A stretch of DNA of 64,000 bases from Patescibacteria group bacterium (GTDB lineage: Bacteria; Patescibacteriota; Patescibacteriia; UBA9934). The notes below the pieces were generated by a model that was given only the letters and a program-made list of their open reading frames with translations, was not told the origin of the DNA and ran no database searches. Where the stretch lies: the NCBI GenBank assembly GCA_038064675.1, contig JBBTSM010000001.1, positions 40,446 through 104,445 on the forward strand, written 5' to 3'. Made by a program: the position numbers and the translations under genes. Shown one piece after another: positions 3,117-12,401 of the stretch; positions within the stretch are counted from its first letter, which is position 1, and every line of letters starts with the position of its first letter.

Positions 3117-3225
3117 AGTTGGTTTTGACGTTTTAACTTATTGGGGATAGTTTTTTCAATTTTCGGCTGATATAGTAAGATCACTGCGCTATTAAAGTGT
3201 TAATTGGGCGTAAGCTTTGGCTCCC

Positions 3226-3984
3226 ATGACTTCTGATTCTATTGAGCTTCTCGGAAAACTTATTCTCGCTTTTCTTGCGTTATTTGGAGGAAAGGAGCTT
3301 TTTAATAAAATAATCTTTCAAAGGATCGAAAAGGGTGAGCGTATTGGTCGAGATAAGGTAGTTAACAATTACTACAATGTCTCGAGAGTCGGAGATCCTG
3401 ATCTGCTGCTAAGCGAATCGTCCGTCCCTTCGCGTGAACCGGTGTCTGGGGATGATGGTGACCTGGTCCCAGGTGCACTGAAAATTTTAGCAGATGCAGA
3501 CGGCTCTATCATTTTAGTATCGAGCGATATTGAAAAAGTGATCGACTTTTTTGAAAGGGTTTTTAAAGAGAACGGAAATTGGAGAAACGGTCACTGTTTG
3601 ATTATGGGCGCACTCTTTGCGCTAATTTCCCAGAGACATCGAAACCTTGAGTGGCAAGAACATTGCGCCAGCTCTCTCCGTGAACTTTTTCATCAGTGGA
3701 AGGGAAGTGAAGGTTTGATTGTTTCTGCTTTTACCAAAATAAGGCCAAAGGGGGCGAATAACTTTCCAACAGCAAAGAATGGTAGGGATCTGTATGCTAG
3801 GATGCGTTGGTACTATGAATTTTTCTCTTCGATATGTCATCATCACCATCCGGACGCTCTAGTGGCATTGAAATCCATTCGAGACGATAGGGAGATAAAA
3901 GATATATCCGACGATTTGTTTAACAAGACAGTGGCAATGTTTTTTTATGAGATGGTAGGATTCATTAGACTTACAGGAGTATGA
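3226..3984 (+). CDS. Hypothetical protein with an N-terminal hydrophobic helix; first gene of the AT-rich island
   Basis: ATG at 3226 (the track start at 3217 is TTG). No recognisable motifs. Its stop overlaps the next gene's start (ATGA at 3981-3984). GC is much lower than the flanks. Confidence 0.5.
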   Translation: MTSDSIELLGKLILAFLALFGGKELFNKIIFQRIEKGERIGRDKVVNNYYNVSRVGDPDLLLSESSVPSREPVSGDDGDLVPGALKILADADGSIILVSSDIEKVIDFFERVFKENGNWRNGHCLIMGALFALISQRHRNLEWQEHCASSLRELFHQWKGSEGLIVSAFTKIRPKGANNFPTAKNGRDLYARMRWYYEFFSSICHHHHPDALVALKSIRDDREIKDISDDLFNKTVAMFFYEMVGFIRLTGV

Positions 3985-6920
3985 AACAATTAGAATTACA
4001 TAACGCGATTGACGGGTTTTTCAGAAGCGATATCAAGCTAGCTAATCTTCAATTTGCGCAAAGTTTATTGCAGAATGAAGACTCGCGGCGTTATTTTTTC
4101 GACCAAGCCAATGAAGTATGGCTTCAATGGCTTTGGGATTTCGGATTTCTTGACGCGATTAAGGGAGGGGCGAATACCGCACCTAGAGGTGTATATCGGC
4201 TTCCCGAACTCGGCTACCTCGAGAAAATTTGTAAGATAAATCCGGTCGGAGTTTCAAAGATCATTGAATCGGTAGAGATTTCCGAAGACAATTGTAGTCC
4301 GGAAGTATTATTGAGTTTTTTAAGGATTATCGGGACTTTTCCGGTTGAACAAATTGTACCGCTCATCGATAAGATTCTATCGGAACGATGGGTTTATTTA
4401 ATGCGAGATTCAGATAGGTCGAGTTACGATTTTGAAGTGATTGTAAAAGTATTAGTGGAAAAGAAAGAGAGCGTTGGTTTGTTAAAGTTATCTCAAGCCC
4501 TTTTGACTTTAAAGGATGAGGACGATATACGAGCAAAAAACGGAGATTTTGGAAGAGACGATTTTTTCTGCGTCAAAGATATTGATGAGTCGGGTATTTT
4601 TAGTGCGCTTATTACTATTGATGAGCATTATTTAACTGCTGCACTTAAAGTTACTACGGATACCATGGCGGCTATCATTAAGATGTCAGAAGCAGATGAA
4701 GGGGGAGTCTTTGAGTATAAGGATGCATTTGGCTTATATGACGTTGATTTTTTTAATCTAGATTTTGAGGGTGGCCATACGGGCTCATATCGCGCGAATG
4801 AAAAAAACTTTGTTACAACTATAAAGGTTCTTGCCGAGAGTGAGATGAACAAGAAATCTACAGGCGACGAAGATAAGAGGTCTGTTCTTGATCTTATAGA
4901 TAATATTCCTTCGAGTCGTCTGGTGTGGAGATTGCGATTATTTGTGCTAGCGCAGCAACCTCTTTTGTTTAAGAGTGAACTTAAAGATTCGTTCTTTAGG
5001 TTGTTTGAAGGTAAAAATGATTACGATATAGAGGGTGGCGCAGAATACAAGCAAGCTTTAAAAATTTGTTTCCCCCTTTTAGACGAAGATGATCAACGGC
5101 TTTATGTTGCGAATGTCATAAATTATTTTGTAAAAAAAGCGAAAGATAATCCAGAACAGAAATGGCACAAACAAACCGGATATGAAATTCTTTCGACCGT
5201 TTTTGTTGATTTAAATGGAGCGGAGAAACAAAAGGCTGCAGAGGTTTTTGGAAAGGAATTAGATGCGGAATATGTTCCGGAGCCGTCAATCGGTCGAATG
5301 AGGTCCGGTACCGTCATATATCAAGCACCAGATGAATTAGAGAAATATACAATTAAAGAAATCATATCGAGATTAAAAACAAATTGGACGCCAGAAAGAT
5401 TATCTGAAGAGTTCAAGAGTGAAGATTATTTCCGGCCTAGAGGAGCCGAGGGGCTTTGCGAGTCTATAAAACAGGATGTAAAGAAGCGTACTGCTGACTA
5501 TCTCAATAATATTGAACTCTTCTTTGATCGTGAGAATATTCATCCTTCGTATATTCACTCATTGCTGCGCGGTATTGAAGAGATGCTCCGTAACGATCAG
5601 AGTCTTAGCTTTGAGCAAATCGAAAATGTATTTGGATTGTTCGGGCTGATAAAGATAAGTGGGGAGAGGGCGCCTTTTAAGGGTAGTGACGATAAGTCCT
5701 GGCTCGCAGATTGGATTGGGGTTCACAGTGTTGCTGTGGATGTTCTTCTTCACATTCTCAGAGATAAGACATACAGGGGGGAAAAGCATGAGGGTTCCCG
5801 TCCTTGGGTTCTTTCATTCCTTTCTTATCTCTTCACCGTTAATGGCAGCCCCTCAAGGGATGACGAAGGCCCTGAATCTAGTGAGCCGTATTCCGTCGCA
5901 ATCAATTCCGTACGAGGCAGGGCGTATGAGGCATTTGTTGTGTTGGTAGAGAACGACGGAAAGACACTAAGGGAAGATGTGAAGCCTGTATATCGAGCGA
6001 TACTTTGTGACGAATCCCTTGCGGTGAGGTTCGTCATTGGTCGCTATCTAGCCTCGTTTTATTTTCGTGACATTGATTTCGTTCGGGGTCTTTTTGCTGA
6101 AATCTTTCCTAAAGATGACTCAGAGAAAAAGGATATTTATCTCGCAAGTTGGGAGGGCTATCTTTCCAACGTTCTATACCAGAAGCTATTTATTGATCTC
6201 GGAAGCTTCTATGATCATGCGATAGCGCTGAGTCCCTCTGAATATACGAAGAGAAAATACTCAACCGGATTGGATGAGGCTCTAGGCGTGCATCTTGCGC
6301 TTGCATTTATCTACTTCGGGTTGGATATTGAAAATGATCCTTTGCTTGTTAAATTTTGGAGCATCGAGAATCCAAAAAGGCATCAGGAGTTTATATCGTT
6401 TATCGGTCGTACATGTTTGACTCAAGATGGTGCCGGGGACAGGTGGTTTAAAGAGAATAAGGTCGATAAAGAAAGACTGATAGCGTTTTGGAGCTGGGCG
6501 GTGGGGCATGTTACTGAGCCTGAAGCCTTGTCTGGTTTCGGTTTCTGGGTGAATCAGGATCACGAGATTCTGGATGACAGTTTTGTTGCAGAGAAGATGG
6601 CGGAGACACTCAAGAAATCAAATGGTGAAATAGATTGGGACTACGGTCTCTTGAGACGATTGCCGGCGCTTGCTGCAAAAAATAGTGATTCGACATTGGA
6701 GATCATTGAACATCTTCTGTTGGGTAACGATGGTAGGCTTAACCCAAATCGGCGTGTTCCATTCTTTAGTCTCGATGGAGAAATAAGAGAATCTCTTGGT
6801 GTAATTTATGACGGCAGTGATGCTGCAATGAAAGTAAGGGTTTCCGATCTGATTAGCAGACTTATTACAGAAGGTAGCAGCATGTTCTGGGGGTTGAAGG
6901 AGGTGATAAAGGAGGCTTAA
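3981..6920 (+). CDS. Large hypothetical protein (979 aa), predicted mostly alpha-helical, no recognisable catalytic motifs
   Basis: Long uninterrupted ORF with an AGGAG RBS at 3975-3979. Translationally coupled to the upstream gene. AT-rich codon usage unlike the surrounding genes. Confidence 0.6.
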   Translation: MKQLELHNAIDGFFRSDIKLANLQFAQSLLQNEDSRRYFFDQANEVWLQWLWDFGFLDAIKGGANTAPRGVYRLPELGYLEKICKINPVGVSKIIESVEISEDNCSPEVLLSFLRIIGTFPVEQIVPLIDKILSERWVYLMRDSDRSSYDFEVIVKVLVEKKESVGLLKLSQALLTLKDEDDIRAKNGDFGRDDFFCVKDIDESGIFSALITIDEHYLTAALKVTTDTMAAIIKMSEADEGGVFEYKDAFGLYDVDFFNLDFEGGHTGSYRANEKNFVTTIKVLAESEMNKKSTGDEDKRSVLDLIDNIPSSRLVWRLRLFVLAQQPLLFKSELKDSFFRLFEGKNDYDIEGGAEYKQALKICFPLLDEDDQRLYVANVINYFVKKAKDNPEQKWHKQTGYEILSTVFVDLNGAEKQKAAEVFGKELDAEYVPEPSIGRMRSGTVIYQAPDELEKYTIKEIISRLKTNWTPERLSEEFKSEDYFRPRGAEGLCESIKQDVKKRTADYLNNIELFFDRENIHPSYIHSLLRGIEEMLRNDQSLSFEQIENVFGLFGLIKISGERAPFKGSDDKSWLADWIGVHSVAVDVLLHILRDKTYRGEKHEGSRPWVLSFLSYLFTVNGSPSRDDEGPESSEPYSVAINSVRGRAYEAFVVLVENDGKTLREDVKPVYRAILCDESLAVRFVIGRYLASFYFRDIDFVRGLFAEIFPKDDSEKKDIYLASWEGYLSNVLYQKLFIDLGSFYDHAIALSPSEYTKRKYSTGLDEALGVHLALAFIYFGLDIENDPLLVKFWSIENPKRHQEFISFIGRTCLTQDGAGDRWFKENKVDKERLIAFWSWAVGHVTEPEALSGFGFWVNQDHEILDDSFVAEKMAETLKKSNGEIDWDYGLLRRLPALAAKNSDSTLEIIEHLLLGNDGRLNPNRRVPFFSLDGEIRESLGVIYDGSDAAMKVRVSDLISRLITEGSSMFWGLKEVIKEA

Positions 6921-7022
6921 TCGGAGGTTAAACCGGTCGCCCCTGCAGAGATGTAGAGCGATCAGTACCTATCCACCTTCCTCCTTGTCACCATACTGAA
7001 TGGGCTACATTATGAGGTATCT

Positions 7023-7379
7023 ATGGAAAGGAATATTGATTTAACGGGGGTCGCTAAGGATATCGTGGCGTTTCGGGATGAGAGAGATTGGAAGCAATTT
7101 CATAATTTGAAGGATTTGGCGATTTCGTTGGTGTTAGAAGCGGGGGAGGTACTTGAGCATTTTCAGTGGAAGAATGCGGAGGAAATGGCTGCACATGTGC
7201 AGTCGCATAAGGAGGATGTGGCGGATGAGCTTTCTGATACGCTGTATTGGATTTTGCTCATGGCAAATGATCTGAATATCGATCTTGTTGCTGCGTTGGA
7301 GAAGAAGATGGAAAAGAATCGCGCGAAGTATCCGGCGGATAAGGCGAAGGGGAACCATAAGAAATACACAGAACTTTAA
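7023..7379 (+). CDS. MazG-like nucleoside triphosphate pyrophosphohydrolase (small all-alpha NTP-PPase, COG1694-like)
   Basis: EAGEVLEHFQWK...ELSDTLYWILLMANDLNIDL matches the metal-binding EExxE/D helix pair of MazG-type NTP-PPases. Confidence 0.75.
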   Translation: MERNIDLTGVAKDIVAFRDERDWKQFHNLKDLAISLVLEAGEVLEHFQWKNAEEMAAHVQSHKEDVADELSDTLYWILLMANDLNIDLVAALEKKMEKNRAKYPADKAKGNHKKYTEL

Positions 7380-7381
7380 AT

Positions 7382-8938
7382 ATGTTAGACATTAAGACTT
7401 TTCCATTTTCAGAAAGCGGCATCCAGCAAATGCGAAAGTCGCCAAATGCAATCGATTGGCCGATTGTGTATTTGATTGAAAACGGGAAGGATTTATATGT
7501 TGGCGAGACAATTCACGCGAGCGCGCGAACAAAGCAGCATCTTGAAAACCCAGAACGTAAAACATTGAAAACGATTCATGTCATTTCTGATGATGAATTT
7601 AATAAATCAGCAACTCTAGATGCAGAATCTTCGCTCATAGAATACTTTGCGGCTGATGGAAAGTATTCTCTTCAGAATGGGAATGGTGGATTACAAAATC
7701 ACGACTATTTTGATCGTGAAAAATACCAAGCAAAGTTTGAGGTTCTTTGGGAGAAGTTGCGAGAAATGCATATTGCGCAACATAGTCTTTTTCATATCCG
7801 TAATACTGATCTTTTTAAATATTCTCCGTACAAAACGCTTACAGATGATCAATACTTCTTGGCAACGTATCTTCTCGCCGATCTGACTGCGGATGTTGAG
7901 CGGAGATATCTTATTCATGGTGGTCCTGGAACGGGGAAAACGATTCTTGCAATCTATATTGTTAAGCAGCTCGTCGAACAAGGAAAAAAGAATGTTGCAC
8001 TGGTCATTGCGATGACTTCGTTGCGGAATACGCTAAAGAAAGTTTTTCGAGCAGTTCCTGGCCTCCGGTCAGACATGGTCATTGGACCAAATGATGTAAC
8101 AAAGCGTCACTACGATACGTTGATTGTTGATGAAGCTCACAGGCTTCGTCGAAGGAGAAATATCCCAAATTATGCATCGTTTGATCAGACCAATAAGCGA
8201 TTTGGATTAGGTACTGAAGGAACAGAATTGGATTGGATTTCTCGTTCCGCAAAACAAGTCATTTTGTTTTTTGATGAAAATCAATCGGTTCGACCGTCAG
8301 ATATTCCTGTTGAAGTTATAAAGAGCTCAGCAGAGACGCATTTCCGTTTAAGCGCACAAATTCGAGTGCAGGGCGGAGAGGAGTACATACATTTTGTTGA
8401 TAATATTCTTGAGGTAAAGCCGGCGGAATATGTGCAGGTCGCAAAATATGATTTTCAAATTTTTGAAGATATTTCTGAGATGATTCGCGAGTTGAAAGAA
8501 AAGGAAAAGATTCACGGTCTTTGTCGATTGGTCGCTGGATATGCTTGGGAGTGGGTTTCTCGGGACGATGCTAAGACGCCGGATATCATAATTGGCAATA
8601 CGAAGCTTTTTTGGAATAGCACAATTCAGGACTGGGTAAACTCTCCAAATGCCATAAATGAAGTTGGATGCATCCACACAATTCAGGGATATGATTTAAA
8701 TTATGCGGGAGTGATCGTTGGACCAGAAGTAACGTTTGACGCATCACGTAATTGTATAGTGATTAAGAAAGAAGAATATCGTGATGCCAACGGGTATCGT
8801 GGAATCGTAGATCAAGAAGAATTAAAGCGATACATCATTAATATTTACAAAACATTATTGACTCGGGGGATTCTGGGAACGTATGTCTATATCGTTGACC
8901 CCGATCTTCGAAGGTACTTTCAATCCACCCTTCGATAA
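7382..8938 (+). CDS. GIY-YIG nuclease domain fused to a DUF2075-type (Schlafen-like) P-loop ATPase/helicase
   Basis: N-terminal VYLIENGKDLYVGET...R..H (GIY-YIG-like). Walker A GGPGTGKT and Walker B LIVDEAHRL. DUF2075-like C-terminal region. Starts 2 nt after the MazG-like stop. Confidence 0.7.
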   Translation: MLDIKTFPFSESGIQQMRKSPNAIDWPIVYLIENGKDLYVGETIHASARTKQHLENPERKTLKTIHVISDDEFNKSATLDAESSLIEYFAADGKYSLQNGNGGLQNHDYFDREKYQAKFEVLWEKLREMHIAQHSLFHIRNTDLFKYSPYKTLTDDQYFLATYLLADLTADVERRYLIHGGPGTGKTILAIYIVKQLVEQGKKNVALVIAMTSLRNTLKKVFRAVPGLRSDMVIGPNDVTKRHYDTLIVDEAHRLRRRRNIPNYASFDQTNKRFGLGTEGTELDWISRSAKQVILFFDENQSVRPSDIPVEVIKSSAETHFRLSAQIRVQGGEEYIHFVDNILEVKPAEYVQVAKYDFQIFEDISEMIRELKEKEKIHGLCRLVAGYAWEWVSRDDAKTPDIIIGNTKLFWNSTIQDWVNSPNAINEVGCIHTIQGYDLNYAGVIVGPEVTFDASRNCIVIKKEEYRDANGYRGIVDQEELKRYIINIYKTLLTRGILGTYVYIVDPDLRRYFQSTLR

Positions 8939-8953
8939 AACTATTTTTTTGAA

Positions 8954-9410
8954 TATGCCCATTGAAACCCCAAAATTGAATCCTGCAGAAGTGAAGGTTC
9001 CTGCTGTTGAGACAGAACCGGGTTCTCGGGTGATAACAATTGCCGTGCACGCAAGGGAGCAGAAAAAGCGAGAGGCGCTTGTGGAGGAAGGTGTTGTGAT
9101 TGTTGAGGAACCGGGAGCGTTGAGCCAGGAATTGGAGGATGCTCGGAGGGATCGTGAGGCGGCGGAAGCGAGGGAGCTTGCTCGGCGGGAAAAGTTTTTT
9201 GCGGATCTTGTTGCAAAGTTTCCGGAGCTGACGGATGTGCAGCGCAATGCGGTGCGTGCAACAATGGAACGGGAGAGCTCGCGAACGTGGTCTAATTATG
9301 ATGGCACGGATACCACGATTAAGCGTATTTCAATCGAGGGTGACGTGTTAACTATCGTGTTTGATATTGAGGAAATGGGTATGCGCATCGACGAAAAAGT
9401 TTGCTTCTAG
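8954..9410 (+). CDS. Hypothetical protein with a charged, coiled-coil-like middle region
   Basis: ORF with ATG at 8954. Its stop TAG is directly followed by the ATG of the next gene. Confidence 0.45.
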
Positions 9411-9965
9411 ATGCTTCACGCCGAGCATATCCCGTACGTTCTTCGTCGCAAGCGCTTTTCGCGGGTGCTGCGGTTTGCGGTACATGCGGATGGACGGTTG
9501 GTGGTTACAGCACCAGTTCTCATCGGGAAGCGCACCATCGAAAAGATGATTGCGGAGAAGAGGGAATGGATTTTGGAGAAACTCGAGATTGCAAGAAAGA
9601 ACGCGAAGCCGGTGGCGCCGAAGAGGACGAAGAAGGAGATCGCCGATGATAAAGATCGCGCATTGGCGTTGATTCGAGATCGGATCGAGCATTTCAACCT
9701 TGTGTATCGATTATCGTGGAAACGGATTGCAATACGGAATCAGAAGACGAGATGGGGGAGTTGTTCGCGGAAGGGGAATTTGAATTTCAATTATAAGATT
9801 GCATTGTTGCCGCCGCATCTTGCGGACTACATCATCGTTCACGAACTCTGCCACTTGGCGCAGATGAATCATTCGAAAAAGTTTTGGGAACTGGTTGCGC
9901 AGACCATTCCAGATTGGCGAGGTCGGCGAAATGAGATTCGGGAGCACGAGATTCGATTGCGATGA
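9411..9965 (+). CDS. DUF45/YgjP-family (SprT/WLM-like) zinc metallohydrolase
   Basis: HExxH motif IIVHELCHLAQMNHS near the C-terminus. The family is typically about 180 aa. Confidence 0.7.
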   Translation: MLHAEHIPYVLRRKRFSRVLRFAVHADGRLVVTAPVLIGKRTIEKMIAEKREWILEKLEIARKNAKPVAPKRTKKEIADDKDRALALIRDRIEHFNLVYRLSWKRIAIRNQKTRWGSCSRKGNLNFNYKIALLPPHLADYIIVHELCHLAQMNHSKKFWELVAQTIPDWRGRRNEIREHEIRLR

Positions 9966-10228
9966 GTATGCCAACATGGTTCGTATACATGGTGCGCTGT
10001 GGCGATGGGAGTCTCTATACGGGGATCGCTATTGATGTTGTAAAGCGAATCGCGTTGCACAACGCGGGGAAAGGGGCGAAGTACACCAGAGCAAGATTGC
10101 CCGTGGTGCTTGTGTGGAGTGCGGCAATGAAGAGCGCGACCGATGCGCGAAAGGCGGAGGTGGATGTGAAGCGATTGTCGAAGAAAGAAAAAGAACAATT
10201 AATAGGTTTGCACGTGCGCCGTGGCTAA
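9962..10228 (+). CDS. Small GIY-YIG nuclease family protein (YhbQ/COG2827-like)
   Basis: FVYMVRCGDGSLYTGIAIDVVKRIALHNAGKGAKYTR is a canonical GIY-YIG core. Overlaps the upstream gene at ATGA. Confidence 0.75.
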   Translation: MSMPTWFVYMVRCGDGSLYTGIAIDVVKRIALHNAGKGAKYTRARLPVVLVWSAAMKSATDARKAEVDVKRLSKKEKEQLIGLHVRRG

Positions 10229-12401
10229 GGTTCCCGTCCCCGATAATTTCGGATACACTTCCTTCGCTATGAAAGACTTTGTTCTCTCCAACCAGCACGC
10301 CTCGCCGAATCTTCATATTGACTATCAGGCGGAGTTGAATGAGGAGCAGTATCGCGTGGTTTCTGGCGGTGGTGGGCCGATGCTGGTACTTGCGGGTGCG
10401 GGGAGTGGAAAAACGAGAACCATTACCTATCGTGTGGCGTGGTTGCTCGAACACGGTACGCCAGTGGAGAACATGTTGTTGCTCACGTTTACGAACAAAG
10501 CGGCAAAAGAAATGATGGCGCGCGTGGAAGGATTGCTTCGCGCATATCCAACAGGATTGTGGTCTGGAACCTTTCACTCCATCGCAAACCGCATGTTGCG
10601 CATGTACGGCGCGTACACTGGCTTCGGGAGCGATTTTTCCATTTTGGACGAGGAAGATGCGAACGATTTGATGAAGATGTGTATCAAGGAGCTGAAGATC
10701 GACACGAAGGGGCGACGATTCCCGAGTGTTGGAGTGTTGCGCGGACTCTTGTCGTACGCCAACAACGCTCGTCGATCGCTTCAGTCGGTGCTGAACGACC
10801 GCGCAGAACATTTCGCGGGAATTCTTCACGAGGTGACGGCGGTTGCAGAGCGATACGCATCCGCAAAACGCACAGCGAAGGCGATGGACTTTGATGATCT
10901 CTTGCTCGAGCTCCTCAAGCTTCTTCGTGAAAACGAATCCGTTCGCACGCAATTGGCCAATCGTTTTCAATTCGTGCTCGTGGATGAGTTCCAGGACACG
11001 AACATTATTCAGTCCGACATCGTCGATCTTCTTTCGTCCGGCCATCGGAATCTTCTCGTTGTTGGCGACGACGCACAGAGTATTTACTCCTTCCGCGCCG
11101 CAGAAATTAGGAACATTCTTGATTTTCAGAAACGGTATCCGGATGCGCAATCGTATCGATTGGTGATGAATTATCGCTCCACGCCGGAGATTCTTGCGGT
11201 TGCGAACGCTGTCATCTCGAATAACAGCGAGCAGTTCGCGAAAGAACTGGTGTCGGCCAAGTCTTCTGGAGAAAAGCCAAACATTGTTCCGGCGAACGAT
11301 GCACGAGAAGAAGCGCAGTATGTTGTTGAACAGATTTTGAAGCTGATCGATGAGGGAATCGAGCTCCAGGGAATCGCGGTGCTGTTCCGTGCAGCGTTTC
11401 ACTCGCAAGCTCTGGAATTCGAGCTGATGAAGCGGGGGATTGCGTACGAATATCGTGGCGGAATGAAGTTTTTTGAACGCGCCCACATCAAGGATGCCGT
11501 TGCGCATCTTCGGCTGCTTCGAAACGGTCACGACCTTGTTGCATGGGCCAGAGCGCTGCAGATTCAACCTGGTCTTGGCATTACCACAAGCCAGAAGATT
11601 GCGGAAACGATGAGTCAGTACGACTCTGCCCGCGATGCCATTGAGGCGCCGATGAAACTTTCTCCTCGGGTACAGTCTGGATTTGCCGGAACACGATCGA
11701 TTCTCCGCATGATGTTTGCTGCACCGCTGCCGTCGGAGGCTGTGCGCGCATTTGCAAATCACGAATCGTACCGGCTGTATCTTGAAGCCGAATATCCGAA
11801 TGCGCGTGAACGGGTTGAAGACTTGGATCAGCTCGCGGTGTTTGCGGAGCAGTATCGCGATCTTGGTGCATTCTTAGACGCGATGACGTTGGCTGGCGAT
11901 TTCGCGGGAAGGATCGATGATGCGGAATCGGGAGCCCGTGAAGAGTCCGATCGAAACAAACTTATCTTGTCGACGATTCACCAGGCGAAGGGACTGGAGT
12001 GGGATGCGGTGTTCGTACTGCACTGTGCGCAAGGAACGTTCCCGAGTGATCGAAGCATGGGGCAGTCGCGGGAAATCGAAGAAGAGCGACGACTGTTCTA
12101 CGTTGCGGCGACGCGAGCGCGGTCGAAGCTATATTTCACGTATCCAATGACGACCGGGTATGAATCGGTTGAGCTTCGTCAGCAGTCCATGTTTCTTGAT
12201 GAGATTCCGTTCGGCATGGCGGAAACCGTGCGTTTACGTCGCGCAATGCCAGCTTGGAGCATGTCGTCGTCGTACAGTACGCCAACCTCGTCTCGCCATC
12301 GTGCGCACGACGAGTTTGAAGAGCCCACAATCGTTCTCGACGACATGGGGGAGAAAATGGTAAAAAAGAGTGCACCTGGTTCGTTTCTCGGCGATCATTA
12401 A
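10221..12401 (+). CDS. UvrD/PcrA-family SF1 DNA helicase (GTG start at 10221; alternative ATG at 10269)
   Basis: LNEEQYRVV...GPMLVLAGAGSGKT (Walker A), DEFQDT (Walker B) and typical UvrD motifs through VAATRAR. Confidence 0.9.
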   Translation: MAKVPVPDNFGYTSFAMKDFVLSNQHASPNLHIDYQAELNEEQYRVVSGGGGPMLVLAGAGSGKTRTITYRVAWLLEHGTPVENMLLLTFTNKAAKEMMARVEGLLRAYPTGLWSGTFHSIANRMLRMYGAYTGFGSDFSILDEEDANDLMKMCIKELKIDTKGRRFPSVGVLRGLLSYANNARRSLQSVLNDRAEHFAGILHEVTAVAERYASAKRTAKAMDFDDLLLELLKLLRENESVRTQLANRFQFVLVDEFQDTNIIQSDIVDLLSSGHRNLLVVGDDAQSIYSFRAAEIRNILDFQKRYPDAQSYRLVMNYRSTPEILAVANAVISNNSEQFAKELVSAKSSGEKPNIVPANDAREEAQYVVEQILKLIDEGIELQGIAVLFRAAFHSQALEFELMKRGIAYEYRGGMKFFERAHIKDAVAHLRLLRNGHDLVAWARALQIQPGLGITTSQKIAETMSQYDSARDAIEAPMKLSPRVQSGFAGTRSILRMMFAAPLPSEAVRAFANHESYRLYLEAEYPNARERVEDLDQLAVFAEQYRDLGAFLDAMTLAGDFAGRIDDAESGAREESDRNKLILSTIHQAKGLEWDAVFVLHCAQGTFPSDRSMGQSREIEEERRLFYVAATRARSKLYFTYPMTTGYESVELRQQSMFLDEIPFGMAETVRLRRAMPAWSMSSSYSTPTSSRHRAHDEFEEPTIVLDDMGEKMVKKSAPGSFLGDH

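Follow-up and report, generated by a model that had tools for sequence, protein, structure and literature searches.

A widespread two-gene cassette encodes a predicted DCTPP1-like pyrophosphohydrolase and a predicted GIY-YIG nuclease-SF1B helicase fusion

The gene at positions 7382-8938 of our window (the whole stretch of 64,000 nucleotides that was analysed, from a Patescibacteria group bacterium) comes second in a self-contained bicistronic cassette that is widespread and uncharacterised. Its product is predicted from its sequence to be a three-part enzyme, with a GIY-YIG endonuclease domain, a helical linker, and an SF1B helicase/translocase. The first gene is MazG-like and is an obligate partner of the nuclease-helicase gene. 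It encodes a protein with an intact metal site that we predict, in both activity and substrate, to be a DCTPP1-like (d)NTP pyrophosphohydrolase. Our search of the literature found no description of a MazG protein paired with a nuclease-helicase, and no experimental work on the family. The cassette closes a low-GC island that was horizontally acquired. The features of the region are the following:

3120..8940, no strand: low-GC island of four genes with the cassette as its right-hand end (composition profiles)
7023..7379, + strand: first cassette gene, MazG-like all-alpha NTP pyrophosphohydrolase (predicted), DCTPP1-like, 118 aa (Pfam, structure match)
7382..8938, + strand: second cassette gene, GIY-YIG nuclease / SF1B (DUF2075, Schlafen group 3) helicase fusion, activities predicted (ORF and translation, Pfam, AlphaFold)
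7382..7450, + strand: N-terminal extension, a beta-strand and a helix ahead of the GIY-YIG core (residues 1-23)
7451..7693, + strand: GIY-YIG catalytic core (residues 24-104), with beta1, beta2, alpha1, beta3, alpha2, and N99
7694..7891, + strand: helical linker from nuclease to motor (residues 105-170; model and conservation)
7892..8935, + strand: SF1B helicase/translocase core of the DUF2075 / Schlafen group 3 type (residues 171-518; PF09848, Foldseek, invariant residues)
7919..7942, + strand: Walker A / helicase motif I, GGPGTGKT (residues 180-187; read from the sequence)
8120..8146, + strand: Walker B / helicase motif II, LIVDEAHRL (residues 247-255; read from the sequence)

Architecture of the nuclease-helicase protein

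The open reading frame starts with an ATG, encodes 518 aa, and has its stop codon at 8938. The protein annotated in a Patescibacteria MAG is identical to it, and its AlphaFold model has a pLDDT of 87.3. An earlier note on this DNA had read in the same frame a GIY-YIG motif (residues 29-53, VYLIENGKDLYVGET...R49..H53 in the translation), GGPGTGKT, and LIVDEAHRL. The frame and the three motifs are all present as quoted.

The motor matches PF09848 (SLFN-g3_helicase, formerly DUF2075) over residues 176-506 with an E-value of 1e-67 and 229.4 bits, for a cutoff of 24, and the match spans positions 4-354 of the 354 in the profile. The assignment to DUF2075 made in the earlier note thus passed the profile search outright. 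Residues G180, G183, G185, and K186 of Walker A, and D250, E251, H253, and R254 of Walker B, are invariant in the 87 homologues. The same is true of Q301, R328, and H432-T433-x-Q435, and 86 of the 87 homologues conserve G436 and R495. A Foldseek search with the model of the motor returned RecD2 (2e-9), followed by Dna2, Upf1, Dda, IGHMBP2, nsp13, Pif1, SLFN14, and SLFN11. Hence, what had been described as an SF1-like NTPase has an SF1B fold, with two RecA-like domains and intact ATPase/helicase motifs.

The GIY-YIG assignment, which had also been proposed, holds at the level of the family and of the structure, whereas the window protein alone scores 17.6 bits against PF01541, for a Pfam cutoff of 22.6. 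We regard it as confirmed, well beyond chance, because 40 of 53 close homologues match PF01541 at E<=0.01, several relatives exceed the cutoff with 23-35 bits (P0224 with 34.7, P0164 with 26.4, P0170 with 25.4, and P0171 with 23.2), and the catalytic residues are invariant. The core has Y30 in beta1 (V-Y30-L), Y39 and G41 in beta2 (L-Y39-V-G41-E), R49 and H53 in alpha1, E82 in alpha2, and then N99. Residues Y30, Y39, G41, and R49 are found in all 86 homologues and H53 in 85 of them. E82, at the position of the metal-binding Glu in the second helix, and the downstream N99 are equally invariant (86/86). The beta-beta-alpha-beta-alpha fold of the domain superposes on solved GIY-YIG domains, among which UvrC gives the best matches and SLX1 is also present.

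The earlier note called the endonuclease module site-unspecific, which is a conjecture: known GIY-YIG nucleases can be specific for a site, a structure, or a modification. Those closest at hand for comparison (the N-terminal domain of UvrC, T4 EndoII, R.Eco29kI, I-TevI, PD-T4-3, and SLX1) have only 11-22% sequence identity with the domain of the cassette, and a fusion to a DUF2075 motor occurs in none of them. The subtype of the cassette differs from them by a beta-alpha extension of its own at the N-terminus and by the conserved motifs NKSATLD and LQNGNGG. In both structure models, the extension consists of a strand (residues 3-8) and a helix (residues 11-18). It includes an F9 that is invariant in the alignment of homologues, and it is shared with the PDC-S14 profiles of PADLOC, whose match covers residues 3-102. 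The linker is modelled as three helices (112-128, 136-146, and 155-168) and has conserved residues of its own (H107, Y115, F119, W123, F145-K146, and S148-P149). An 88-aa GIY-YIG ORF showed no detectable similarity to the N-terminal domain of the 518-aa protein. We also considered whether the fusion had been described under a COG number in the 2006 phylogenomic survey of GIY-YIG domains and rejected this, since the sole helicase fusion mentioned in the text of the survey is that of the eukaryotic Tlr8p with an SF1 helicase.

The MazG-like partner and the S24 tail

The MazG-like protein matches PF12643 with an E-value of 6.9e-18 and 65.1 bits (cutoff of 27). Its metal site, of the form E-x-x-E ... 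E-x-x-D, is made of E39, E42, E69, and D72, which are invariant in 81 of 81 partners, and E45 is conserved in 80 of them. The closest solved structures are those of DCTPP1/RS21-C6, with an E-value of 8e-19 over 104 residues. E39, E42, E69, and D72 align with E63, E66, E95, and D98 of the mouse protein, and W23, W49, and W76 with W47, W73, and Y102, which we take to be its metal ligands and aromatic residues, respectively. In contrast to DCTPP1, the partner is a minimal bacterial protein of 118 aa in an operon with a nuclease-helicase, an arrangement that, to our knowledge, has not been described for DCTPP1.

The stop codon of the MazG-like gene (TAA, 7377-7379) is separated from the ATG of the helicase gene by 2 nt, as the earlier note had said when suggesting that the two are co-expressed. 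Our scan of the cassette for promoters and terminators gave signals no better than those of shuffled sequence, and no terminator was found between the two genes. The conservation of the pair supports co-expression. Among 80 loci representing species, 75 have a MazG-like gene directly upstream of the helicase gene. Of the five exceptions, three are at contig edges, which leaves 75 of 77 informative loci of reference genomes, and these span several phyla. The same arrangement is found in five of five independent contigs, whose flanks are unrelated, on one faecal 'phage' scaffold, and, at 34% identity, on two Bacillus megaplasmids, where the partner is annotated as 'nucleotide pyrophosphohydrolase'. 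The genes of the cassettes are spaced by 1-6 nt or overlap. The pairwise identities of one protein co-vary with those of the other (r=0.47), and in one metagenomic protein the MazG-like part is fused directly to the GIY-YIG domain of the cassette.

About half of the family (43 of 87 relatives) carries a C-terminal LexA/UmuD-like S24 domain, which the earlier note missed and which is absent from the window protein. In these tails, the Ser and the Lys are invariant and the cleavage site is Cys-Gly (CG) or Ala-Gly (AG). In the long forms, the domain probably makes the activity respond to RecA-ssDNA, i.e. to DNA damage or infection. The window protein ends at residue 518, like other short forms, with no S24 domain or Ser-Lys dyad, and an HMM of the S24 tails has no match in the window, so none is encoded separately nearby. 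Judging from its sequence, it is a natural short form. We rejected the possibility that it is a truncated long form with its S24 domain in the downstream ORF 8883-9410, because many natural forms of ~520 aa share the same end, this ORF has neither an S24 nor any other match, and the HMM is blank in the window. As it lacks this switch, the window copy must be constitutive or otherwise controlled.

Distribution and genomic context

The pair is co-inherited across Patescibacteria, Bacteroidota, Bacillota, and at least one archaeon, and is also found on megaplasmids of the Bacillus cereus group. Its distribution is patchy: with the patterns that we used, we found ~494 matches in 185,579 species genomes. 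In the window, the GC content of the island is about 0.36-0.47, for 0.51-0.55 in the flanks. It drops directly after the end of a TerC-family gene (3116) and recovers directly after the stop codon of the nuclease-helicase gene. At the edges of the island we found only short imperfect repeats, with no att-like repeats and no tRNA gene nearby. The island has no phage structural or integrase genes, and a search for an empty-site allele, which would show recent insertion, found none. We considered and rejected a four-gene system including the 255-aa and 979-aa genes of the island, because neither accompanies the cassette in any other locus.

The flanks of the cassette are unrelated even between copies that are 60-70% identical, and there is no conserved third gene among the 148 nearest neighbours of cassette loci. 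Elsewhere, the neighbours vary, and many of them are toxin-antitoxin, restriction, or defence-candidate genes. They include Fic/SoFic, RhuM, NYN, AbiEii, SocA/Panacea, Mrr, and PDC candidates, as well as type IV restriction enzymes of the PLD-helicase-DUF3427 type. On Bacillus plasmids, SocA, a zeta toxin, and nucleases of the HNH type are encoded nearby, and in one locus (L010) an OLD-family nuclease is a neighbour. Many neighbours are ordinary housekeeping genes (ribosomal proteins, GidA, TspO). YgjP-like genes are near the cassette in the window and in six other Patescibacteria loci, and PcrA/UvrD-like genes are in some.

Candidate function of the cassette

The nearest characterised analogues are Nhi, which joins a PD-(D/E)XK nuclease to DUF2075, and the Nhi-like proteins, which join a NERD domain to it. 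Nhi (SERP2475 of Staphylococcus epidermidis) resembles our protein in joining a nuclease, at the N-terminus, to an SF1B helicase of the DUF2075 type within one polypeptide, and its defence against phages requires both activities (bioRxiv 10.1101/776245). Yet, its nuclease is not of the GIY-YIG type, and it is encoded by a single gene, whereas the family of the window has its MazG-like partner and often an S24 tail. The Nhi-like proteins of Millman et al. 2022 were shown to be defensive (bioRxiv 10.1101/2022.05.11.491447) and share with ours the N-terminal nuclease followed by DUF2075. However, their nuclease is a NERD domain (PMC10952713), for which (PF08378) the window protein has no match at E<=0.01, and no MazG partner is described for them. 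Hence, the GIY-YIG nuclease, the near-constant DCTPP1-like partner, and the frequent LexA-type tail are new relative to the Nhi-type nuclease-helicases, and a role in immunity is suggested by our analysis. AbiO, an abortive-infection protein of Lactococcus, has a related DUF2075-type motor, but its profile reaches only the first half of ours and leaves the N-terminal nuclease unmatched. The Schlafen proteins of group 3 (SLFN5/11/13/14) have a C-terminal PF09848 helicase and a nuclease fused to the same motor, but no MazG partner. Their N-terminal nuclease is the unrelated Schlafen core domain, which cleaves tRNA and rRNA. They act in antiviral restriction and in the DNA-damage response (PMC6765204; bioRxiv 10.1101/776245), and the former work also noted DUF2075 proteins beside DUF3427 restriction enzymes and fusions to GIY-YIG.

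With moderate confidence, we consider that the cassette is a module targeting nucleic acids for defence against phages or other mobile DNA, and that it works in a manner similar to Nhi. We infer this function from the architecture and the neighbourhood. The immunity role put forward in the earlier note is thus plausible, and its support is circumstantial: the matches of the motor to defence profiles, the low-GC island, and the variable, defence-rich neighbourhoods. The PADLOC profile of Nhi matches the motor with an E-value of 5.6e-17, over residues 140-375 only, and that of AbiO with 5.4e-16, over residues 119-373. The defence candidates PDC-S14 and PDC-S41 match the nuclease domain and the C-terminal half, respectively, and the MazG-like gene has no match in PADLOC. 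In such a module, the motor would load on foreign or replicating DNA and translocate with ATP, and the tethered GIY-YIG domain would cut the DNA engaged by the motor. The role that we give to the MazG partner is speculation. It could act on the nucleotide pool, by stripping modified or non-canonical dCTP-type precursors of phages or by lowering the supply of dNTP, which would reinforce restriction and/or keep modified bases out of the host DNA. Defences that deplete nucleotides (dCTP deaminase, dGTPase) were reportedly described by Tal et al. in 2022. A partner that depletes the pools of dCTP or dNTP during infection would follow the same logic, although those enzymes belong to another family.

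The strongest alternative, which we hold to be a possible but minor one, is that the cassette repairs DNA under damage or replication stress. The MazG protein would clear damaged or non-canonical nucleotides from the dNTP pool, the GIY-YIG helicase would excise or process lesions or stalled forks like UvrC, SLX1, or Dna2, and the LexA-like domain of the long forms would provide a link to the SOS response. The structural matches of the nuclease domain to UvrC and SLX1 fit this explanation, and so do the resemblance of the motor to Dna2 and RecD2, the proximity of the partner to the house-cleaning DCTPP1, the self-cleaving domain in half of the relatives, and the YgjP-like and PcrA/UvrD-like genes near the cassette. 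However, repair accounts poorly for a patchy distribution, a location within an acquired island, unrelated flanks between close copies, carriage by megaplasmids amid HNH, zeta-toxin, and SocA genes, and the recurrence of type IV restriction enzymes and toxin-antitoxin genes beside the cassette. The matches of the helicase part to the Nhi and AbiO profiles also speak against it.

It is improbable that the cassette is a toxin-antidote pair (addiction or abortive infection), in which a toxic DNase is neutralised by the MazG protein, either directly or by destruction of an activating nucleotide, and which stabilises the carrier element or kills infected cells. The tight coupling of a small upstream gene to a large nuclease gene, and the presence of the pair on plasmids and variable islands alongside other toxin-antitoxin genes, are in line with this scheme. 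In one low-coverage contig from the same population, a stop codon (position 7471) takes the place of precisely the catalytic Tyr30, as would be expected of a costly nuclease, but this variant is supported by ~3x coverage and is possibly an error. On the other hand, the metal site is complete in all copies of the partner, which suggests that it acts as an enzyme and not as a purely stoichiometric antidote, and we know of no MazG-family protein that is an antitoxin. Phages often encode MazG, and there are four weak matches to the family in a phage collection, yet it is very improbable that the cassette is selfish cargo, either of the homing type (a mobile GIY-YIG homing endonuclease) or borne by phages (a module for replication or anti-defence), given that a search of 2.9 million viral contigs yielded no relative, three of the four matches are unverified and unannotated faecal scaffolds, the full-length one adjoins a type IV restriction enzyme, and the island shows no intron/intein context or NUMOD-type DNA-binding domains besides lacking phage genes.

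Returning to defence, a more specific and rather unlikely version is that the cassette is an undescribed nucleotide-centred immune module, combining DCTPP1-like policing of the dNTP pool, by which modified dCTP-type precursors made by phages would be destroyed or replication starved, GIY-YIG/Schlafen-type destruction of any DNA still synthesised, and, in half of the family, licensing of the nuclease by LexA-like self-cleavage stimulated by RecA. If this were true, bacteria would have a counterpart of the way in which eukaryotes pair restriction of the dNTP pool with a damage-responsive helicase-nuclease of the SLFN11 type. Proteins joining a nuclease to DUF2075 (Nhi and Nhi-like) are proven single-gene phage defences and have their motor in common with the human Schlafen restriction factors. 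The hypothesis of a defence function is directly testable, since there are culturable carriers, including Bacillus thuringiensis HD-1 (genes BTK_RS33805/33800 of pBMB431), Pedobacter (such as Pedobacter sp. Leaf41), Chryseobacterium (such as C. taiwanense), and Holdemania. The family is present in at least several hundred species, including Patescibacteria with tiny genomes, whose defence mechanisms are little studied. If it is defensive, nucleotide-pool control, DNA-damage sensing, and DNA degradation would be joined in one compact two-gene unit.

A nuclease-helicase fusion in short and long forms

The cassette consists of two genes:
7023-7379 (+), MazG-like gene
7382-8938 (+), gene of the window protein, a GIY-YIG nuclease fused to a DUF2075 helicase

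The second gene is an ATG-start ORF of 518 residues, and an identical protein in a groundwater Patescibacteria (CPR) metagenome-assembled genome is labelled only 'DNA/RNA helicase domain-containing protein'. The earlier note had described the product as an immunity-type GIY-YIG and DUF2075 fusion, and all the motifs it quoted were found: VYLIENGKDLYVGET, then R49 and H53, Walker A GGPGTGKT (residues 180-187), and Walker B LIVDEAHRL (residues 247-255). Its DUF2075 assignment is borne out by Pfam, where the whole PF09848 profile (SLFN-g3_helicase, former DUF2075) aligned to residues 176-506 (E=1e-67). The AlphaFold model, computed with 53 homologues as input, is confident (mean pLDDT 87.3), and its Foldseek neighbours are SF1B helicases (RecD2, Dna2, Upf1, Dda, IGHMBP2, coronavirus nsp13, and Pif1), with human SLFN14 and SLFN11 also among the matches. 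Across the alignment of 87 homologues there is no variation in the Walker A lysine, the Walker B Asp-Glu, Q301, R328, or the HTxQ motif, and G436 (adjoining HTxQ) and R495 are kept in 86 of them. Given this conservation of the helicase motifs, the motor is very likely catalytically competent.

Taken alone, the window protein scores 17.6 bits on PF01541, against a Pfam threshold of 22.6, and PDB searches with its single sequence were uninformative for the N-terminal domain. At the level of the family, the profile is matched at E<=0.01 by 40 of 53 close homologues (best 7e-6), and more distant relatives exceed the curated threshold (23-35 bits). Among 86 homologues from several phyla, Y30 (the 'GIY' Tyr), Y39 and G41 (the 'YIG' Tyr-x-Gly), R49 and H53 of the helix, the metal-binding E82, and the downstream N99 are near-invariant. 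These matches and conserved catalytic residues establish the N-terminal domain as GIY-YIG. The failure of profile searches for either domain, which the earlier note had named as refuting its reading, did not occur, and the domain call is correct. Searching exhaustively with the N-terminal domain as query gave ~585 clusters at 50% identity, in which it is almost always N-terminal in full-length GIY-YIG and DUF2075 proteins. One homologue (P0224, 673 aa) has two tandem GIY-YIG domains before the DUF2075 motor.

Many close homologues are longer (~667-735 aa) and carry an extra C-terminal Peptidase_S24 (LexA/UmuD-like) domain. This optional tail is present in 43 of the 87 aligned relatives (P0008, P0013, L006, L008, and 39 other loci, all outside the window), where its catalytic Ser (G-[DE]-S-M) and Lys are invariant. 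The site ahead of the domain is Cys-Gly in Patescibacteria and Ala-Gly in Bacteroidota. Such a cleavage site with the Ser and Lys is a hallmark of RecA-stimulated self-cleavage, and these residues suggest RecA-dependent self-processing of the nuclease-helicase. The window protein is a naturally short member of the family, since its end point matches that of other ~520-aa forms and no S24 domain is encoded near the cassette in the window.

The MazG-like partner

The MazG-like ORF ends in a TAA (7377-7379) followed by two bases and the ATG of the helicase gene, confirming the 2-nt spacing reported in the earlier note. The two genes are not separated by any terminator-like site, and a promoter scan at the cassette performed no better than chance.

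The operon is conserved, and the MazG-like gene is a non-accidental neighbour of the helicase gene. On four other contigs with wholly different flanks (58-67% identical homologues), a 115-120-aa MazG-like gene stops 1-6 nt upstream of the helicase gene. Our census, restricted to one genome per species, revealed relatives in at least 494 genomes: mostly Patescibacteria, with Bacteroidota (Pedobacter, Chryseobacterium, Marivirga, Haliscomenobacter), Bacillota (Holdemania, Clostridium, Erysipelotrichaceae), and one Woesearchaeote. A MazG-like ORF is directly upstream in 75 of the 80 loci kept from this census, and three of the five exceptions have less than 100 nt of upstream sequence. The same gene order occurs on Bacillus cereus-group megaplasmids (34%-identical homologues; upstream gene labelled 'nucleotide pyrophosphohydrolase' by RefSeq) and on an unverified faecal 'phage' scaffold. 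Pairwise identities of the MazG-like and helicase proteins co-vary (r=0.47). In P0219, a metagenomic 331-aa fragment, a MazG-like domain is joined straight to the GIY-YIG domain in place of residues 1-25, a single case that lends weak Rosetta-stone support to the pairing. No third conserved gene was found among the 148 nearest neighbours of the cassette.

The MazG-like product matches PF12643 (Pfam, E=7e-18), and its nearest solved structures are mammalian DCTPP1/RS21-C6 (dCTP pyrophosphatase 1; E=8e-19) and an archaeal pyrophosphatase. The active site is intact: across 81 partners E39, E42, E69, and D72 never vary, and E45 is found in 80 of the 81. In the DCTPP1 alignment, these four invariant residues correspond to mouse E63/E66/E95/D98, and the aromatic W23/W49/W76 to mouse W47/W73/Y102; in RS21-C6 these residues bind the metal and stack on the base, respectively. 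Because of this correspondence, the partner is most likely an active (d)NTP pyrophosphohydrolase.

Island, flanks, and neighbours in other genomes

The cassette closes a 5.8-kb acquired island on the right, since GC drops from 0.51-0.55 to 0.36-0.47 directly after a TerC-family gene (~3120) and recovers directly past the helicase stop codon (~8940). We found no flanking repeats or nearby tRNA at the island edges, and no empty-site allele. Other genes in the island and its right flank are:
3217-6920 (+), two overlapping island ORFs of 255 aa (hydrophobic N-terminus) and 979 aa
8883-9410 (+), 175-aa ORF sharing 56 nt with the 3' end of the helicase gene
9411-9965 (+), YgjP-like metallopeptidase gene
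9962-10228 (+), stand-alone 88-aa GIY-YIG protein, overlapping the start of the next gene
10221-12401, UvrD/PcrA-like SF1A helicase gene

The 255-aa and 979-aa ORFs have no Pfam, NCBIfam, or PDB match; PADLOC aligns the 979-aa product with the C-terminal region of its Dsr1 profile (E=3.8e-13), and no SIR2 domain is present. The two genes may form a separate, unknown defence-type unit, since they accompany the cassette in no other locus. The 175-aa ORF has no database matches and probably starts at a later ATG (~8955), as part of the native flank, because GC climbs to host level inside it.

The 88-aa GIY-YIG and SF1A helicase genes amount to a 'split' nuclease and helicase beside the fused one, and no sequence similarity could be detected between the 88-aa protein and the N-terminal domain of the window protein. 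Homologues are found close to the cassette in L050, L060, and L067, and the source contig carries another GIY-YIG gene (75 aa; L094 3492-3719), ~11.5 kb upstream of the cassette. Six other Patescibacteria loci (L013, L014, L025, L026, L036, L050; 44-50% identity) also have a YgjP-like gene at most a few kb downstream of the cassette, which could reflect a common insertion hotspot or a loose functional link. In L096 (ERZ1292625, same groundwater population, ~3x coverage), T7471G replaces the codon of the invariant catalytic Tyr30 with a stop (TAT to TAG) and GG7484-7485TT changes G35 to Leu; these changes may represent either a genuine knockout of the nuclease domain or an error arising from low coverage.

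The cassette is horizontally mobile, and its neighbours in other genomes are heterogeneous, housekeeping genes among them. Recurrent ones include Fic/SoFic, RhuM, NYN, AbiEii, SocA/Panacea antitoxins, Mrr, M78 peptidases, the PADLOC candidates PDC-S04, PDC-S05, and PDC-S23, and PLD-helicase-DUF3427 type IV (modification-dependent) restriction enzymes. The latter lie directly upstream of the cassette in at least two unrelated loci (L011 511-3432, L093 3459-6560), and the 148 nearest neighbours include a second DUF3427 match. An OLD-family nuclease adjoins it in L010, and HNH nucleases and a zeta toxin are found nearby on the Bacillus megaplasmids.

Proposed function and relation to known systems

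We lean towards a defence module with a motor, a nuclease cut, and a nucleotide-pool partner, on the following grounds. Nhi and Nhi-like (NERD and DUF2075) are the closest characterised systems, and Nhi, a PD-(D/E)XK and DUF2075 protein, needs both nuclease and helicase for phage defence (bioRxiv 10.1101/776245). The PADLOC Nhi and AbiO profiles match the motor, and the defence-candidate profile PDC-S14 matches the nuclease domain. Finally, a 2019 paper briefly mentions occasional fusions of DUF2075 to GIY-YIG and its location beside DUF3427 restriction enzymes, and it notes the DUF2075 adjacency of McaZI (PMC6765204), echoed by the DUF3427 enzymes of L011 and L093. The motor would translocate along foreign or replicating DNA, the GIY-YIG domain would cut the DNA on which it moves, and the MazG partner would act on the nucleotide pool, this specific role being the weakest step of the proposal. 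The LexA-like tail of the long forms would tie activity to RecA-ssDNA.

The main rival, possible if doubtful, is a repair or SOS function made of the same parts. A toxin-antidote pair is improbable, and a phage or homing element very improbable; the family is essentially absent from the viral collections searched.

The window protein belongs to the GIY-YIG superfamily and to the DUF2075/Schlafen-group-3 helicase family. Its mode of action may resemble that of Nhi and Nhi-like, but it falls outside both, because it lacks their defining nuclease domain and single-gene organisation. In the searchable literature, we found neither experimental work on the GIY-YIG and DUF2075 architecture nor any account of the MazG pairing or the S24 variants. 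The cassette is one more nuclease-helicase candidate, but its three-component logic is unusually clean, widely conserved, and testable, and culturable carriers exist.
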